Shown here one piece after another: positions 25,757-53,025 of a DNA stretch of 64,000 bases. A program made the translations under genes and the position numbers. Position 1 is the first letter of the stretch, and each line of letters opens with the position of its first letter. Below the pieces are notes generated by a model. That model was not told the origin of the DNA. It was given only the letters and a program-made list of their open reading frames with translations, and searched no databases. This stretch comes from Flavobacteriales bacterium (lineage in GTDB: Bacteria; Bacteroidota; Bacteroidia; Flavobacteriales_F; PHOS-HE28): positions 200,948 through 264,947 of the forward strand of contig JADJVC010000001.1 of assembly GCA_016710685.1 (NCBI GenBank), read 5' to 3'.

Positions 25757-26127
25757 GCGTTGGTGATTTTGGTCTTGCAGGTGTTTGGCAAAGATGGGGC
25801 CAACCTGAAAATCAGCATGATCGAACTGGTACTACCGGCGGATTGCGCATCATTGGAACGCTGAAAGGCACGTGCGGCTATTCCTCAGTTGAAGAAGAAT
25901 GGGAGCTTCAAATCCTGTCGATCCTGTTAATCCTGCTCAAAACCCCGAAACTCCCGCAAGTGTTCCAGCCTTCCAGGAATGTGCGTTCCAACTGGGCTGG
26001 GTCACTTGTGGGCATCTTGATTTTATTCATAACACCTCCTAATCCTTTCCCCAAGCGCCGCCAAGACCGATCTTTGCGTCCAAATGATGGGCAAACCTCT
26101 CTTTCAGCCCAAAAGCTCCTGATCAAT

Positions 26128-34687: not shown

Positions 34688-34809
34688 GGGGTGGGGGATG
34701 AAGGGGTAAAAGTAGCTTGAACCGTTTGGGCCGAGCGATTCGGCTGGATTGGATCTGGCAGAAGGCCATTAGTCTCAATGGGCGTGTGGCAGGCAACGCG
34801 GTTGGTATT

Positions 34810-35104
34810 GGTGCGGTAGATTCGCTGCCCCGAGACAAAAAGCGGAACCCACAAGCCGATCAGTTGATGGACGCCCGAAAATACTACTTCTCTCTTCTCA
34901 CTTTTATCGGCTCCCTAACGCTGGGTTTTACGGCATCGGCGCAGTCACTGCAGGTCTTGGACGGCACAAGCCGCCAACCCGTGGTGGGCGCGGTGCTGAC
35001 TTCGACGGACCCGGCGCGGCAAGCCACTTCGGATAGCACCGGCAGGGTAGACCTCGCTGTTTTTCCGGACAGTGCTTGGGTGCGCGTTGAACACATCGCC
35101 TTCC
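34810..35104 (+). repeat. Copy A of a ~300-bp direct repeat: degenerate 3' end of a T9SS CTD gene + promoter/RBS/first ~80 codons of the TonB-dependent receptor at 37692 (5' gene fragment 34867..35154)
   Basis: ~85% identity over the first ~110 bp and ~98% over the last ~190 bp with 37638..37936. The fragment encodes MDARKYYFSLLTFIGSLTLGFTASAQSLQVLDGTSRQPVVGAVLTSTDPARQATSDSTGRVDLAVFPDSAWVRVEHIAF and then diverges exactly where REP1 begins. Confidence 0.8.
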
Positions 35105-35744
35105 CACTAGCGCGAGCGTCCGCGCTCGTGCTTTCTCTACGCCGAAGCATCTAACTTTCCACCATGAGTGAGAGCTACAAATTTGTTGAGGGTCATGCTC
35201 ACTTCATCACGTTTGCGGTTGTGGGCTGGGTGGATGTATTCACACGACGCGCATATCCCGAGTTCCTATTGGAGAACTTGGCTTTTTGTCGAAAAAACAA
35301 AGGGCTTCGCCTTTATGACCTTGTGATCATGCCGAACCATTTGCATTTGATCGCAGCGGCTGCAAATGGCAGTTTGGGAGAGATTATGCGTGACTTCAAG
35401 ACCTTCACGAGCAAGGAACTGGTGAAGCGTATCGCCGCGAACCCCCAAGAAAGCCGGAAGGAGTGGATGCTCCGTGTGTTCCGCGAGCATGGTGCGGCAA
35501 ATCCACACAACAAGGACCACCAATTTTGGCAACAGAGCAACCGTCCGATCATTCTGGACAAGCCGGAATTGTTTGACCAGCGTAGGCGCTACCTTCGCGA
35601 GAATCCGTTACGTGCAGGCTTGGTAAATGATGAGTCAGCGTACATGTGGAGCAGTGCCAACCCGCATTTGGAGTTTGAGTTTGATGAAGCATAGAAACCG
35701 AGGAGATGGAAAAAGAGGCACGAGCGTGGACGCTCGCGCCAGTG
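35105..35744 (+). mobile_element. REP–RAYT–REP unit: REP-associated tyrosine transposase gene flanked by inverted REP hairpins
   Basis: REP1 35105-35132 CACTAGCGCGAGCGTCCGCGCTCGTGCT. REP2 35717-35744 GGCACGAGCGTGGACGCTCGCGCCAGTG is the reverse complement with 27/30 identity. Each folds into a ~10-bp imperfect stem. Confidence 0.75.
35164..35694 (+). CDS. REP-associated tyrosine transposase (RAYT; IS200/IS605 Y1-transposase family)
   Basis: 176 aa; HuH motif MPNHLHLI; C-terminal catalytic-Tyr helix RRRYLRENPLRAGLV; typical RAYT length; flanked by inverted REPs. Confidence 0.8.
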   Translation: MSESYKFVEGHAHFITFAVVGWVDVFTRRAYPEFLLENLAFCRKNKGLRLYDLVIMPNHLHLIAAAANGSLGEIMRDFKTFTSKELVKRIAANPQESRKEWMLRVFREHGAANPHNKDHQFWQQSNRPIILDKPELFDQRRRYLRENPLRAGLVNDESAYMWSSANPHLEFEFDEA

Positions 35745-36747
35745 TGGGACCTAACATCAGTCGCTTTCGACCCTGCGGACGAAAACACGATTTACATCGG
35801 TTATGCCTCGTCCCAATTCCTTTCCGGTTACAATGAACCTTATGGAAACAGGATGGTGTTTAAAATGGACGTTTCCGATTTGTCTCAATACCCAGCAGGA
35901 GATCTCCCATTTGATTGTCCGGGAACTCCTTGCGCCGACATTACCATGAACCTGCCGAATACGTTTATTTCCATTGGGGCCATGATGGCGGAGCAGGGTA
36001 GCGACGGTGGTCTCTACGTGGCTACTGAAGCCGGCGTGTTCTTTACCGATAACAAACGCATCGCAGCATTCAATCCTGTGCAGCCGGAAGATGCCGATGA
36101 CATGTCAAACACCAGTGGATGGGTAAAATTGGGCGGCAGTTTGCCACATGTCGGTTCGCGAGGGATTGAGGCGAACTACCAAGTGAATCGTGTGCGCGTA
36201 GGTCTGTATGGTCGGGGTGTATGGGAACATCATCTGCATTGCCCAGATACTTTGCAATTCAATGAAGCAGGGACATATGGAGCCGACAGGTACTTGGAGG
36301 CTATGCAAAATATCACTTCGGAAGCGATAGTTCCTACGGGACTCGATCTGAAGTATCGTGCTGGAGAGGAAGTCCGCCTTACACCCGGTTTTCATGCAGA
36401 ACCGGGTACACGCTTCCATGCCTTCATTCATCCTTGTGACGCACCCGGCAATAGCTTCCATCCGAAAGCGATGCAAGCTGGCGCACCGGAAGCTGAAATT
36501 GAAAACGAGTCTGTTTATGTGGGAATGGAACTTTACCCCAACCCCGCCAATGGGTCTTTCACAGTACGGGCCAATTTCATCTCGGAGAATGGAATAGCGA
36601 CCATTCGAGTATTTGGCCCTACAGGCAATTTGGCATTGTCATCGGTAATGCGTGGGCCGCAGCAGTTTATAGATTCCAGTGGCTTGCATGGCCTTTACAT
36701 GGTTGTGGTTGAATGTGCCGGTGTCCAACAGACCAGAAAAAATTATT
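35706..36747 (+). pseudogene. 5'-truncated T9SS cargo gene fragment (BNR/sortilin-like beta-propeller C-terminus + Por_Secre_tail CTD); no signal peptide, begins inside REP2
   Basis: ...GGLYVATEAGVFFTDNK..., then the CTD VYVGMELYPNPANGSFTVRANFISENGIATIRVF...LYMVVVE. The same frame continues without a stop into the next gene. Confidence 0.45.
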
Positions 36748-37647
36748 TTGCAATGAGAAAGTGGCTGTCACTCATCACCTTCTTTAGTATCAGTAGCGGT
36801 ATTTCTGCACAGTTCTACCCAGATTCCACAGGAACATGGTGCATCCGTGATTTGAATAATTCTACAGCATTAGATATAACCATGGAGATGAGAGTAGGTT
36901 ATGACACAATTATCAACGGGAATACCTATCAACTAATAGATGAATTTCACGGAGATGATAATTGGAGTGTACCTGAATATATTAAAACTTACTACGTTAG
37001 ATCAGATACTGCGGGAAATGGTTTTATCTACATTCCTGCTTTATCGGAAGAATACCTAACTGGAAATATTAATGTTAATGTTGGGGATACGATTGAAAAT
37101 TTATATATGGGGTTTTTAAGCAGCATTGCAATTGTTGATAGCGCAGTCATATTAACTAATGCGTCTGATACCGTGAGGCGCGTCTATGTTCGGCAACCAT
37201 GGATAGGCAATTCGTTTTCTTCAATTAAGTCATTTTGGCAATCTGGAATGGGTTGTTCATTTTGGACCATATATCAATTATGATGATTTTCAAGACTTGA
37301 CGTGTGTAATAGCCGACGGTCGATATACATTTTCATTAAGTATTCCAGGAAACCATGCCGATCAATTGCCAATTGTACCCTGCGAGTGTGTTGCAATTGC
37401 GACCAATGTGGAGGAAGGTATTAGCCGTGTACTCCCAAGTATCTTCCCCAACCCCTCAACCAGTACATTCACCATAAGGAATGCCTCGTGTTCAAACGAA
37501 ATAGCCGTATACACCACCACCGGCCACCGAGTATGGCAAGGCACCGGCAATACCATAGACCTAATCGCGCAGCCACCCGGCGTGTACACGGCGGTGGTGG
37601 CCACGGAGCGGGGTAGGCAGGCGGTGCGGTTAGTAGTGGTGCAGTAG
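36748..37647 (+). pseudogene. Mosaic T9SS cargo gene: low-GC (~35%) N-terminal module with signal peptide fused (across a frameshift near 37210-37285) to a GC-rich Por_Secre_tail CTD
   Basis: MRKWLSLITFFSISSGISAQ signal at 36748; AT-rich 36740-37420. Frame 0 stops at 37283, while frame +1 is open from 37207 and encodes ...SIFPNPSTSTFTIRNASCSNEIAVYTTTGHRVWQG...VRLVVVQ*. Confidence 0.45.
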
Positions 37648-50134: not shown

Positions 50135-50194
50135 ACAGCTAACCGATCCCCACATTCCCCACATCCCCCTATCTTCGGGCCGAAACAATACACC

Positions 50195-51010
50195 ATGGCA
50201 CACGGACTATTGAAGGGAAAGCGCGGCATTATCAGCGGTGCGTTGAACGAACAGAGCATCGCTTGGAAAGTGGCCGAACTGGCGCACGCCGAAGGTGCCA
50301 CCATCGTGTTGACCAACGCACCCATCGCCATGCGCATGGGCGAGATCAACAAGCTGGCCGAGGCCACCAACGCCCTCGTCATTGGCGCGGATGCCACCAA
50401 GGACGAGGACTTGGTAGCGCTTTTCAACGGTAGCAAGGAGCACCTCGGCGGCGAATTGGACTTCGTGCTGCACAGCATCGGCATGAGCCCCAATGTGCGC
50501 AAAGGCAAAGCCTACGACGACCTCAATTACGACTGGTACCATCAGACCCTGGACATCAGCGCCATGAGCTTCCACCGGATGATGCAAGCTGCCAGCAAAA
50601 CCAATGCACTGGCGGAACATGCCAGCGTGGTGGCGCTCAGCTACATCGCCGCACAACGCGTGTTCCCCGGCTACGGAGACATGGCCGATGCCAAAGCATT
50701 GCTTGAAAGCATCGGGCGCAGCTGGGGTTATTACCTCGGCATGTCGAAAAAAGTACGCGTGAACACCGTGAGCCAAAGCCCCACCAAAACCACGGCGGGC
50801 GCAGGCATCAAAGGTTTCGGTGGCTTCTTCGGCTTCGCGCAGGAAATGAGCCCGCTGGGCAACGCCCCTGCTGAAGATTGCGCCGCATACTGCATCAGCC
50901 TCTTCAGCGACCTGACCCGCTACGTCACCATGCAGAACCTATTCCACGACGGGGGCTTCAGCAGCAGCGGTGTCACACCGAAGGTGATGGACCACTTTAT
51001 GGGGGAGTAG
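50195..51010 (+). CDS. fabI: Enoyl-[acyl-carrier-protein] reductase (NADH) FabI
   Basis: MAHGLLKGKRGIISGA... (glycine-rich NAD site); catalytic Y/K region ...SYIAAQRVFPGYGDMADAKAL... Confidence 0.9.
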   Translation: MAHGLLKGKRGIISGALNEQSIAWKVAELAHAEGATIVLTNAPIAMRMGEINKLAEATNALVIGADATKDEDLVALFNGSKEHLGGELDFVLHSIGMSPNVRKGKAYDDLNYDWYHQTLDISAMSFHRMMQAASKTNALAEHASVVALSYIAAQRVFPGYGDMADAKALLESIGRSWGYYLGMSKKVRVNTVSQSPTKTTAGAGIKGFGGFFGFAQEMSPLGNAPAEDCAAYCISLFSDLTRYVTMQNLFHDGGFSSSGVTPKVMDHFMGE

Positions 51011-51087
51011 TTGTCAGGTCCCCCGCCAAAGCGCTCTGGCGCCGGCGGGTTGTCAGGCGCGTTCCCGCGACGTACTGTGCTTGAATT

Positions 51088-51429
51088 CTACTTCAAGAAC
51101 GCACCATCCACCACCAGCAGCTTTACTGCATTCACGGTGCGCGAGCGGTGTTGGCTCAACCCATCGGAAACCGCGTAGGAGGATCCTGCCTTCATCACAG
51201 TGGTGGATCCATCTTTCAATTCATTGATGAGTTCGCCTTCAAGCACAAAGACCAAGTGGCCAAGTTCGCACCAGTGGTCCGCGAGGTAGTTCGCACTGTA
51301 CTCGACCATCCGGATACGCAAGTCGCCAAGTCGCTGGATCTGCATGGTGGCCGTGCCCGAAGTGCCGTTTACAACAGTGACGGGCACTTGCGCCCATTCG
51401 GTGATCTGGAAGGGGATGTGGAGAGGCAT
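51088..51429 (-). CDS. DHCW-motif cupin fold protein
   Basis: 113 aa; contains the literal DHWCEL motif; MPLHIPFQITEWAQVPVTVV... matches the family. Confidence 0.75.
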   Translation of the reverse strand: MPLHIPFQITEWAQVPVTVVNGTSGTATMQIQRLGDLRIRMVEYSANYLADHWCELGHLVFVLEGELINELKDGSTTVMKAGSSYAVSDGLSQHRSRTVNAVKLLVVDGAFLK

Positions 51430-51871
51430 GGTACGTCGAAGGTAGCTTTACGTGGCAGTCCGAAGACTGCTTGAAGCGATCTTGCCTTGATCGACTGAGC
51501 AGCCCACCACTCGCCCCGGCCTGTTTCAGCAGGAACTCACTTTATTGTTGGGCCAGACTGGCGGGAGGGCGGGGTCCGCGAGGTAGTTCGCACTGTACTC
51601 GACCATACGGATGCGTAGGTCGCCGAGCTGCTGGATCCTCATAGTGGCGGTGCCCGAAGTGTCGTTTACAATGGTGATGGGCACATGATCCCATTCGGTA
51701 ATATGGAAGGGGATGTGTAGAGGCATGGTACGTCGAAGGTAGCTTTACGTGGCAGTCTGAAGACTGCTTAAGCGATCTTGCCATGATCGACTGAGCAGCC
51801 CACCAGTCGCCCCGGCCTGTTTTCAGCAGGAACTCACTTTATTGTTGGGCCGGGAAGACTGGCGGGAGGGA
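51278..51871. repeat. Tandem ~297-bp duplication (51278-51574 and 51575-~51871) covering the cupin 5' coding region + leader, creating a truncated second copy
   Basis: GTCCGCGAGGTAGTTCGCACTGTACTCGACCAT... aligns at ~90% identity with a 297-bp offset; each copy ends in AGACTGGCGGGAGGG. Confidence 0.85.
51526..51726 (-). pseudogene. Truncated duplicate of the DHCW cupin gene (N-terminal ~52 aa, then unrelated tail)
   Basis: MPLHIPFHITEWDHVPITIVNDTSGTATMRIQQLGDLRIRMVEYSANYLAD then diverges (PALPPVWPNNKVSSC*). Confidence 0.55.
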
Positions 51872-51917
51872 GGGAAGACTGGAGGGAGGGGTGGGAAGAC
51901 TGGAGGGAGGGGTGGGG
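51852..51917. repeat. G-rich minisatellite (GGGAAGACTGGAGGGAGGGGT)x3, potential G-quadruplex former, at the edge of the tandem duplication
   Basis: gggaagactggcgggagggagggaagactggagggaggggtgggaagactggagggaggggtgggg. Confidence 0.8.
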
Positions 51918-52147
51918 ATTACCCAATCTCCCGCAAGTCTTCCCGGCTAACCAAGAATTGCGCTCCAACACAGACAGCCGGGGCGACTTGTGGGTTATGA
52001 AATTACTTGCATCCATGCTTTGCTCGTGAAGTCTTCGGACTTCACACAGAAACCGTTCAATACTTTACCAATTTCAGCAACCTAAGTTTCCGTCTAACGG
52101 CTGGCAATTAACGGAGAAAAAGCAAGTCCCTTGCTCATCCGCACCTC

Positions 52148-52933
52148 TCACCGCCGCACCACGCTGTACGTGTTCACCGTGTTGCCGGTGTGTACGCGCA
52201 GTAGGTAAACGCCTTTGTCGAGGTCGGTAAGGTCGAGCGGGATGCGCACTAGGCCGGTGGCGTTGCGGTGCTCTTCGTTGCGGACTACTTGGCCGGCGGC
52301 GTTCAGCAGTTCCAGGCGGAGGTCTTGCGCTTGGGCCAGTTCCACGGTAAACAGGGTGGTGCCTTCGGTGGGGTTGGGCGTGATGTTGGCCACGCCGTCT
52401 ACGAGTTCGCCTGCAAAAATGCCGGTGGTGAAGTCGCCGTAGATAGCACCCGTTTCATCCACACCGCCCAAGGCGAGGTAGTAGTCGGCGTTGTTCAAGG
52501 TGGTCCAAGTGTCGTTCACCATGCTGAATTCGGCGGTGCCGGTAACGGGGATGGTAGCGATGGTGTACTCCTGTCCCGCGACCCAGTCCGTAGGGATCCA
52601 CTGCAAGGGGGTAAGGCCGAAACCCACGAAGATCTGGTAGCGCAGGCCGGCATCGTCCAGCTCGCTGCCGCTACGGGTAACGGGGATGTAGGTGCTGGCC
52701 GGGGCCACCTGCTGAATGGTTCCAAGGTGCGCATCGGTGGCGGCATCCCATCGGATGGTGAAGACGAGGCTGCTTACCATGCCGTCAAATCCCGCGCTGG
52801 GCCGCAGGCGCACATCCAATTGCCCGCTTGTGTTGGGTACCAGGGTGATGTCTACCGGAGCGGCGCTGGCTACTGTGGCCATGGCCAGAAAACCGGTTGC
52901 GAGGATACTGCGGAAGGTGTGGGAAAGGCGCAT
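52148..52933 (-). CDS. Secreted T9SS cargo protein with Por_Secre_tail CTD
   Basis: Signal MRLSHTFRSILATGFLAMATVASAAP; C-terminal NITPNPTEGTTLFTVELAQAQDLRLELLNAAGQVV...YLLRVHTGNTVNTYSVVRR. The start was trimmed from the track's 53005. Confidence 0.75.
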   Translation of the reverse strand: MRLSHTFRSILATGFLAMATVASAAPVDITLVPNTSGQLDVRLRPSAGFDGMVSSLVFTIRWDAATDAHLGTIQQVAPASTYIPVTRSGSELDDAGLRYQIFVGFGLTPLQWIPTDWVAGQEYTIATIPVTGTAEFSMVNDTWTTLNNADYYLALGGVDETGAIYGDFTTGIFAGELVDGVANITPNPTEGTTLFTVELAQAQDLRLELLNAAGQVVRNEEHRNATGLVRIPLDLTDLDKGVYLLRVHTGNTVNTYSVVRR

Positions 52934-53025
52934 TTCAGGGAATTTGAATGGTAAAAGTAGGCTTTTTAGCAAGCGTTGCGCAAATCGGGCCTTGGAGTTC
53001 TGCACGATCCTTCGAGGTTAAGCAA

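Follow-up and report, generated by a model that had tools for sequence, protein, structure and literature searches.

A hairpin repeat cluster, probably of a RAYT family, and a truncated second copy of a cupin gene in a Flavobacteriales bacterium

A 64,000-nt stretch of DNA from a Flavobacteriales bacterium (GenBank assembly GCA_016710685.1, contig JADJVC010000001.1, positions 200,948 to 264,947 of the forward strand; called the window below, and positions are those of the window unless a contig is named) contains a DHCW-motif cupin gene whose first part is present a second time, together with the non-coding sequence in front of it, as a 297-bp tandem repeat. The intergenic stretch concerned, 51430-52079, is probably a repeat cluster of the REP/REPIN type (REP, repetitive extragenic palindromic sequence; REPIN, a hairpin-forming doublet of REPs) that belongs to a family of REP-associated tyrosine transposases (RAYTs). 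The 297-bp repeat would then be one extra unit of this cluster, consisting of a copy of the left flank of the transposase gene and the 153 nt downstream of it. An earlier note on this DNA, made from the sequence alone, had described the same region as a gene duplication bounded by a G-rich minisatellite. The duplication itself was confirmed, and the minisatellite had to be given another meaning. The parts of the locus are listed here; LE and RE denote copies of the left and right flank of a RAYT gene, for which the flanks found on another contig, L182, were taken as reference, CDS stands for coding sequence and ORF for open reading frame.

51088 to 51429, minus strand: copy A, the full-length DHCW-motif cupin gene, 113 aa (NF038084 DHCW_cupin, E 2.6e-41, 140 bits, cutoff 70).
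51430 to 51574, minus strand: LE-A, a copy of the RAYT left flank that forms the cupin 5' region (51574-51452 is 89.2% identical over 130 nt to the left flank on L182).
51455 to 51470, minus strand: small 6-bp hairpin of LE-A, GCAGTC-UUCG-GACTGC, the UUCG loop being derived.
51497 to 51572, minus strand: REPIN-like hairpin of LE-A, arms b'/a' (nhmmer with the hairpin-doublet profile, E 2.2e-18).
51526 to 51726, minus strand: ORF B, truncated, 66 aa, made of cupin codons 1-51 (51574-51726) and 15 codons from LE-A, that is, from the next unit.
51727 to 51882, minus strand: LE-B, an intact copy of the RAYT left flank (51882-51749 is 94.9% identical over 137 nt to the left flank on L182; the alignment reaches the ATG).
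51752 to 51767, minus strand: small hairpin of LE-B with a UUCA loop (fold z -2.7).
51793 to 51873, minus strand: REPIN-like hairpin of LE-B, 18-nt arms and a loop of about 30 nt (nhmmer E 4.2e-23; DNA fold -17.9 kcal/mol, z -2.6).
51799 to 51994, no strand: imperfect palindrome of 196 bp formed by RE facing LE-B (RNA fold -95.6 kcal/mol, z -5.1).
51872 to 51913, plus strand: two perfect 21-mers GGGAAGACTGGAGGGAGGGGT, partial duplicates of the outer REPIN arm; an imperfect third unit, 51852-51872, is the arm itself.
51924 to 52079, minus strand: RE, a copy of the RAYT right flank (93.6% identical over 156 nt to the right flank on L182; nhmmer E 5e-21).
25948 to 26013, plus strand: decayed, dispersed, intergenic copy of the REPIN-like hairpin (nhmmer E 1.1e-5; DNA fold -17.8 kcal/mol, z -3.7).

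The reference contig, L182, is 55 kb long and comes from a sample that also holds the two-copy arrangement of the window, on contig L165. A 182-aa gene at L182 2028-2576 scores 101.4 bits with the model NF047646 REP_Tyr_transpos (cutoff 80) and 31.6 bits, under the cutoff of 55, with the IS200 model NF033573, and on these profile scores it is classed as a RAYT. Against the flanks of this gene, left and right, the window stretch 51430-52079 shows 89-95% identity. On L182, four tandem copies of what appears in the window as the cupin "leader" stand before the RAYT gene and three copies of the upstream intergenic sequence of the window come after it, and the 18-mer GCCGGGRMGACTKGYGGG occurs there in 18 copies (0.12 expected), distributed over the left- and right-flank arrays around the gene. 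A mini-element with LE and RE and without a gene is located at L182 4805-5060. In the left-flank alignment the ATG of the cupin gene falls on the ATG of the RAYT gene. Taken together, the flank identities, the shared ATG position, the mini-element and the dispersed decayed hairpin led us to identify 51430-52079 as a RAYT-associated REPIN-like cluster. In the dispersed hairpin both arms carry compensating changes, from CCCGGC/GCCGGG to CCAGCC/GGCTGG, and the hairpin is kept. The decayed copy at a second locus, the mini-element and the presence or absence of the unit between haplotypes are signs of RAYT mobility, all of them indirect.

With its ATG where the transposase has its own, the cupin gene in this species owes its entire 5' region to LE, and presumably its promoter as well. 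Each left-flank unit on L182 extends 30-40 nt into the RAYT CDS, whose start reads ATGAGCAGAAGCTACAAATTCCTTGA..., and there meets the C-rich outer arm of the unit that follows. As such units of LE and 30-40 nt of RAYT CDS are stacked beside the RAYT gene, the formation of units appears to be a recurrent property of this repeat family. A common arm edge, ...CC(T/C)CCCGC(C/A)AGTC, was found at the junction of units A and B of the window, at the 21-mer junctions, at the right-hand junctions of AT-rich inserts carried by other strains and at the boundary of the mini-element.

The 297-bp head-to-tail repeat was recovered by Tandem Repeats Finder at 51276-51874 (period 297, 2.0 copies, 89% matches), and pairwise alignment agrees, so that the reported duplication of the leader and about 150 bp of cupin CDS is well founded. 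Both units finish with AGACTGGCGGGAGGG (plus strand), as had also been reported. The A/B junction lies exactly at the G/C-rich motif, where the visible microhomology is 1-3 nt only. The breakpoint in the cupin gene, GGACC/ACTGGTG, adjoins a 7-mer common to the inner arm, GACTGGTGGG, a match whose bearing on the joining of the units is suggestive only. The G-rich boundary motif turned out to be one of the GCCGGGRMGACTKGYGGG 18-mers, and the 21-mers are its partial copies; what had been read as a minisatellite bounding the array is not free-standing and represents the outer arm of the REPIN-like hairpin from the RAYT gene flanks. The three terminal repeats claimed for it are in part correct: a 21-bp unit with 3.1 copies is reported at 51852-51916, of which two copies are perfect and the third has 3 mismatches, while shuffled sequences gave none. 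The 18-mer has nine matches in the window where 1.2 are expected, all except two weak ones at the cupin locus, and the 196-bp palindrome consists of four copies of it in alternating orientation. The centre of this palindrome is the site of the variable inserts in other strains.

Intact REPIN-like hairpins have 18-nt arms and a spacer of about 30 nt, with DNA folds of -15 to -18 kcal/mol (z -1.9 to -3.7). One of them lies in RE (51923-52000), which also has a small hairpin of 8 bp (52026-52045) and keeps, as a relic, about 24 nt from the end of the RAYT CDS. LE-A is degraded in the window strain. Polarised against contigs L161 and L082 and against copy B, it has a 4-nt deletion in the outer arm, a 1-nt deletion and 2 substitutions, and its hairpin folds no better than shuffled sequences (z -0.58). 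The loss in the outer arm, the private changes and the lost fold advantage fit a redundant copy in decay. The 66-aa truncated paralog of the earlier note exists as ORF B. It reaches 49 bits on NF038084 (cutoff 70), covers profile positions 2-49 only, and is without the DHCW motif and most of the barrel; by this score it is a cupin fragment outside the DHCW-motif cupin family. Copy B also carries the change G22D at a glycine that is invariant among the aligned relatives, and it is most likely a non-functional relic.

Read on the minus strand, the order of the cluster is RE (small and REPIN hairpin), the two partial outer-arm copies represented by the 21-mers, and LE (REPIN and small hairpin) up to the ATG, with the cupin CDS starting where the transposase CDS starts in the master copy. 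The extra unit would comprise LE and the first 153 nt of the cupin CDS, joined at the outer edge of the REPIN arm of the next LE. The joining may have occurred by hairpin-promoted template switching or by unequal exchange between REPIN arms or, alternatively, by aberrant RAYT cleavage and strand transfer at a pseudo-site in the cupin CDS. Because the coding patch of B has a history different from that of its flank, at least one further event, recombination or gene conversion with a functional cupin allele, would have to be added. A bolder version of the model is that the RAYT or its hairpins repeatedly copy the left flank with a variable length of downstream DNA and re-join it at the outer edge, thus acting as a portable 5' region that captures the start of a host gene. 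Such a process would yield tandem 5' gene fragments, the 66-aa stub perhaps being a selected one, at which its surplus of synonymous changes might hint, and we regard it as unlikely.

The distribution of the arrangement was followed in 80 genomes of the GTDB and 80 metagenome contigs encoding the cupin. Cupin orthologues are single-copy in these 160 related loci, and outside the closest lineage the roughly 160 cupin loci have no leader, no duplication and no 18-mer; in the distant loci the cupin start is usually within a few bases of an unrelated upstream gene. The exact 66-aa ORF B was present on 21 contigs from about ten samples (NCBI metagenome-assembled genomes (MAGs), JGI and ENA assemblies), one contig being 1.07 Mb long. 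A 62-aa variant of it is encoded on L161, which is 98.3% identical to the window and whose junction differs by a 4-nt indel only. All two-copy contigs have the same B unit, A unit and 21-mers. The sister haplotype, represented by 23 contigs with flanks 96.5-97.5% identical, has a single cupin copy. Between its REPIN hairpins it carries an AT-rich insert of about 530 bp (L082 1715-2250; also L081 and L172-L181) with a 36-aa ORF and a gene for a 136-aa membrane protein with a weak DUF3784 match, which may be an orphan toxin-tip and immunity-like cassette. A reading of this insert as a bacteriocin precursor was rejected, the frame not being conserved between haplotypes. Both haplotypes are found in sample 3300053040. 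The duplication is shared and stable within one haplotype and is not universal. The event had been thought recent, which does not agree with an identical 66-aa ORF on 21 contigs and the 62-aa variant on one, from many samples and assemblers. It had also been stated that a two-copy structure with a conserved functional short ORF, common to all relatives, would speak for an old feature; this applies in part, the structure being present in 22 assemblies and missing from the 23-contig sister haplotype.

Other inserts were seen at the same kind of position. On contig L170 (1-640), unit B is immediately preceded by another AT-rich segment, which contains a 147-aa ORF and codes for the C-terminus of an HNH/colicin-DNase-like protein. 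A search with this ORF led to L182, where the same pair (1-1413) is the tip of an Rhs-core protein and its 147-aa partner, directly against the left-flank array of the RAYT gene. L170 may represent a genuine recombinant haplotype, or the assembly may have crossed over at the repeat that both sequences share. The cupin gene has been partly duplicated a second time, independently, in a more distant MAG of the Flavobacteriales (L003 4229-5068). There its final 104 nt occur twice with 95% identity, on either side of an inserted DUF5615/DUF433 gene pair that runs on the opposite strand.

To trace the history of copies A and B, the sister haplotype was added as a third taxon, and some 24 more distant cupins served as outgroups. 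The divergence between A and B is a mosaic, with 2% in the LE flank (about 3 substitutions in the 144-nt non-coding part), 17.5% in CDS nt 1-120 (21 substitutions) and 0% in CDS nt 121-153 (no substitutions). Private changes in the coding part number 14 for copy B, all in CDS nt 1-120, 7 for copy A and 4 for the sister haplotype; over the whole unit, 14 of the 16 B-specific changes lie within 120 of the 297 nt (binomial estimate ~1e-4). Ten of the 14 are synonymous where 4.5 are expected, and when the same mutation types were placed at random, 0.1-0.2% of placements gave at least ten (P≈0.001), with a stop codon arising in 40% of trials. Eleven of the 14 go from GC to AT. Copy A, too, has 10 differences from the sister haplotype in 51300-51399, as opposed to about 2.5 per 100 bp elsewhere. 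Copies A and B have three derived states in common relative to the sister haplotype and the outgroups. The polarising signals conflict (A with B at 3 sites, A with the sister haplotype at 2-3, B with the sister haplotype at 1). Copy B is identical across strains, but these are nearly clonal at the locus, so that this conservation carries no weight. A search of 5.8 billion proteins turned up no B-type N-terminus on a full-length cupin, and the nearest full-length match reached 82%. On these alignments, the 2% divergence of the flank and the excess of synonymous changes rule out a single duplication or slippage followed by neutral decay of the fragment. Most of the coding divergence of B appears to have arisen inside a working gene, or else the stub itself has been under selection. 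The history may have been import from another strain, short-patch conversion or an older full-length paralogue that was later truncated.

Several other explanations of the locus have to be weighed against the REPIN cluster. The synonymous excess could be explained if copy B, or its coding patch, were the relic of a different functional cupin allele acquired by inter-strain recombination, either through homology-facilitated illegitimate recombination anchored in the RE/LE repeats or through short-patch gene conversion once the duplication existed. Such a history does not conflict with the REPIN explanation, and we hold it tentatively as a possible, though not a favoured, addition. It agrees with the divergence mosaic, with the unusual divergence of copy A in the same patch and with strains carrying different inserts coexisting in one sample. 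However, a B-type full-length cupin was not among the 5.8 billion proteins, the three derived states common to A and B point to an origin within the lineage, and the LE beside B is not diverged. The synonymous excess would also be expected if the two-copy arrangement were functional, the 66-aa product being a selected small protein or the tandem LE a doubled promoter or 5' untranslated region regulating the cupin gene. Copy B has no stop codon, unlike 40% of the simulated sets, it is identical in strains that differ by 1.7% overall, and the arrangement is fixed in a widespread haplotype. Nevertheless a function is quite improbable: the fragment falls well below the family cutoff and is without the DHCW motif and most of the barrel, its C-terminal tail varies between strains by a change of frame (PALPPVWPNNKVSSC vs PAPPPVFPAQQ), the carrier strains are nearly clonal and low-divergence tracts of similar length occur elsewhere. 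A scan for promoters and terminators, which does not cover Bacteroidota promoters, recognised no promoter of the sigma-70 type and reported a single weak site resembling a terminator. The earlier proposal of a recent, private slippage or unequal crossover between G-rich minisatellite motifs, with copy B since decayed as a pseudogene, keeps the position of the junction, which is at the G/C-rich motif with microhomology of 1-3 nt, and is in line with G22D at the invariant glycine and with the GC to AT bias of the B changes. One slippage with neutral decay is contradicted by 2% as against 17.5% divergence and by the clustering and mostly synonymous nature of the B changes. In addition, the identical B structure recurs in 22 assemblies and the motif is a REPIN arm and no autonomous minisatellite, which makes this proposal very improbable.

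Even less credit can be given to a G-quadruplex on the G-rich strand (51850-51918) as both the cause of instability and a functional feature. The end of the array had been called quadruplex-capable, and a G4Hunter score of 2.16 at 51887-51918 and overlapping GGG runs that fit a relaxed motif, several times with loops up to 12 nt, support this at the level of sequence prediction. On the other hand, the G-rich strand has no canonical motif (loops of 7 nt or less), the same bases are also an arm of a strong hairpin/palindrome that would compete with a quadruplex, three other sites in the 64 kb score equally high, and the arrays on L182 show the same type of junction at arms without extra GGG runs. 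An assembly artefact in which two strain haplotypes were placed in tandem might be suspected, as the A-B difference is allele-sized and the samples are mixed communities, but the same junction was obtained in independent NCBI, JGI and ENA assemblies, including the 1.07-Mb contig and k141 short-read contigs, and on L161 with the 4-nt indel as the only difference, so that an artefact is next to impossible. A few other systems were tried and rejected. For a diversity-generating retroelement the differences are not adenine-specific and the repeat spans the 5' end; arm lengths and spacing do not fit integron attC sites, whose core-site consensus is half matched; and Xer/dif-type modules as well as Tn7/Mu-type multi-site transposon ends are at odds with a motif that lacks dyad symmetry and switches orientation within an end.

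The assignment to a RAYT-associated REPIN-like cluster has weaknesses of its own. The matching RAYT gene is located on another contig, L182, and that it belongs to the same genome as the window is our inference, while the RAYT gene in the window itself (35164-35694) is only 51% identical to it and has different flanking repeats. The order in the window, RE and then LE, is the reverse of that around the RAYT gene, and no one simple event accounts for it. The ways of adding units given above are conjectural, and the biology of the repeat by itself leaves the synonymous excess of copy B unexplained. Repeat density is low, with four hairpin copies at two loci in 64 kb and one dispersed mini-element on L182; given the apparently low copy number, the family may be less like the abundant proteobacterial REPINs and more like an insertion sequence (IS) with derivatives of the miniature inverted-repeat transposable element (MITE) kind. 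Neither GTAG/CTAC nor CGTC/GACG was found beside the arms in the aligned copies, although this tag is the mark of the studied proteobacterial groups 2 and 3 and not necessarily of all RAYT-linked repeats.

The leader had also been proposed to hold a conserved regulatory RNA stem. BLAST of the leader against the 80 GTDB cupin loci gave no homology, which shows that the leader is no regulatory element conserved with the cupin. An exact 28-nt leader pattern had 0 matches in the metagenome collection because the window strain carries private changes there. The hairpin, which the earlier note placed at 51452-51467 with a duplicate near 51750, does exist, but its true site is 51455-51470 and the loop of the second copy is UUCA. 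The UUCA loop is also found on L161, in the sister haplotype and in the RAYT flanks; the perfect UUCG tetraloop thus arose by one base change and is a derived state, seen in copy A of one sub-lineage. The stem is invariant as part of the transposase flank, which leaves no covariation to assess. A search of 50900-52300 with Rfam at E up to 10 returned nothing but spurious matches, caused by the palindrome, to miRNA and lncRNA models of eukaryotes, all scoring far under the gathering thresholds.

Some further features of the window were recorded. The upstream neighbour of the repeat cluster is as follows (T9SS, type IX secretion system).

52148 to 53005, minus strand: gene for a protein with a T9SS C-terminal sorting domain (Pfam PF18962, TIGR04183).

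Just past the stop of this gene on the minus strand, at 52115-52136, lies a hairpin AGCAAG-GGA-CTTGCT followed by TTTTCT, which resembles an intrinsic terminator and is absent from the output of the terminator scan. Inside copy A, an 8-bp tandem repeat GCGACTTG GCGACTTG is present at 51319-51334 (minus strand). Compared with copy B and the sister haplotype, three substitutions close together produced it; Q33R, one of the three, is private to the window strain among 12 aligned sequences. The repeat looks like a small templated mutation. A C-rich 9-mer repeat TCCCCACAT (2.6 copies, 50144-50173, G4Hunter -2.16) lies between a recN-like gene and fabI. An exact look-up of the cupin and FabI products matched no record. 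The second RAYT gene, at 35164-35694 on the plus strand, scores 82.6 bits with NF047646 (cutoff 80). On either side of it, at 35110-35131 and 35718-35739, stands a 22-nt inverted repeat, GCGCGAGCGTCC(G/A)CGCTCGTGC, which has no further copy in the 64 kb. The neighbours of this RAYT gene are ORFs at 34717-35154 and 35706-37283, the second of which codes for a protein that has T9SS tail and GCX_COOH domains, and the RAYT gene may split a gene; a low-GC stretch near 36-37 kb (GC 0.47) adjoins it.

What looked like a quadruplex-prone, minisatellite-driven gene duplication is re-labelled here as a RAYT-associated hairpin repeat cluster. This kind of feature is already known, and a unit with the captured 5' end of a host gene is an unusual example of it; such clusters have been little described outside the Proteobacteria, and the present host belongs to the Flavobacteriales. 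The locus offers a natural example of a repeat unit that has taken in the first part of a host gene and so produced an ORF annotated as "hypothetical protein", of a transposase flank that now forms the whole upstream region of a host gene, and of one site at which coexisting strains carry different inserts (nothing, a membrane-protein cassette, or an Rhs-type nuclease with its partner). For annotation it is a caution that short hypothetical ORFs beside such repeats may be captured gene fragments. If it is true that the transposase makes the units, the locus would be a testable substrate for studying how RAYTs move DNA.

Among known processes, homology-facilitated illegitimate recombination in natural transformation, with one homologous anchor and a GC-rich microhomology joint, would leave a foreign partial gene copy beside the resident gene; here, in contrast, no donor allele was found and the adjacent flank is not diverged. 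The IS200/IS605 elements and their MITE-like derivatives (PATEs) resemble the present family in the Y1 transposase, in subterminal hairpins at each end, in the gene-less LE-RE derivative at L182 4805-5060 and in having no long terminal inverted repeats that end at a target-site duplication. They differ from it in that the L182 protein is above the RAYT cutoff and below the IS200 cutoff, and multiple full copies were not seen. The arrays of bacterial interspersed mosaic elements (BIMEs) of the BIME-2 type in Escherichia coli are similar in their alternating palindromic intergenic units and head-to-tail expansion, BIMEs being described in PMC8266576 as often occurring in consecutive tandem copies. 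BIME units, however, consist of REPs of 30-40 nt with short linkers and no coding sequence, whereas the unit here is 297 bp. The closest design is that of the REPIN-RAYT systems (REPtrons), in which a Y1/HUH RAYT gene lies between inverted hairpin-forming doublets and further doublet copies are intergenic. In Pseudomonas fluorescens SBW25, ordered REPIN clusters are tandem repeats of REPINs that include flanking sequence, and they are found beside RAYT genes as well (Bertels & Rainey 2011, PMC3116915). Since tandem doublets with flanking sequence, including clusters beside the RAYT gene, are the same unit design as observed here, the 297-bp repeat is read as a member of that class. The SBW25 REPINs differ from the present ones, which are found in a Flavobacteriales host, have 18-nt arms, a loop of about 30 nt and no GTAG tag, and appear to be low in copy number. 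The repeated flank is also particular to this locus, being about 145-155 nt long with a second small hairpin and reaching the start or stop codon, and here one unit holds 153 nt of host CDS and has created an ORF, while the flank now serves a host gene as its 5' region.

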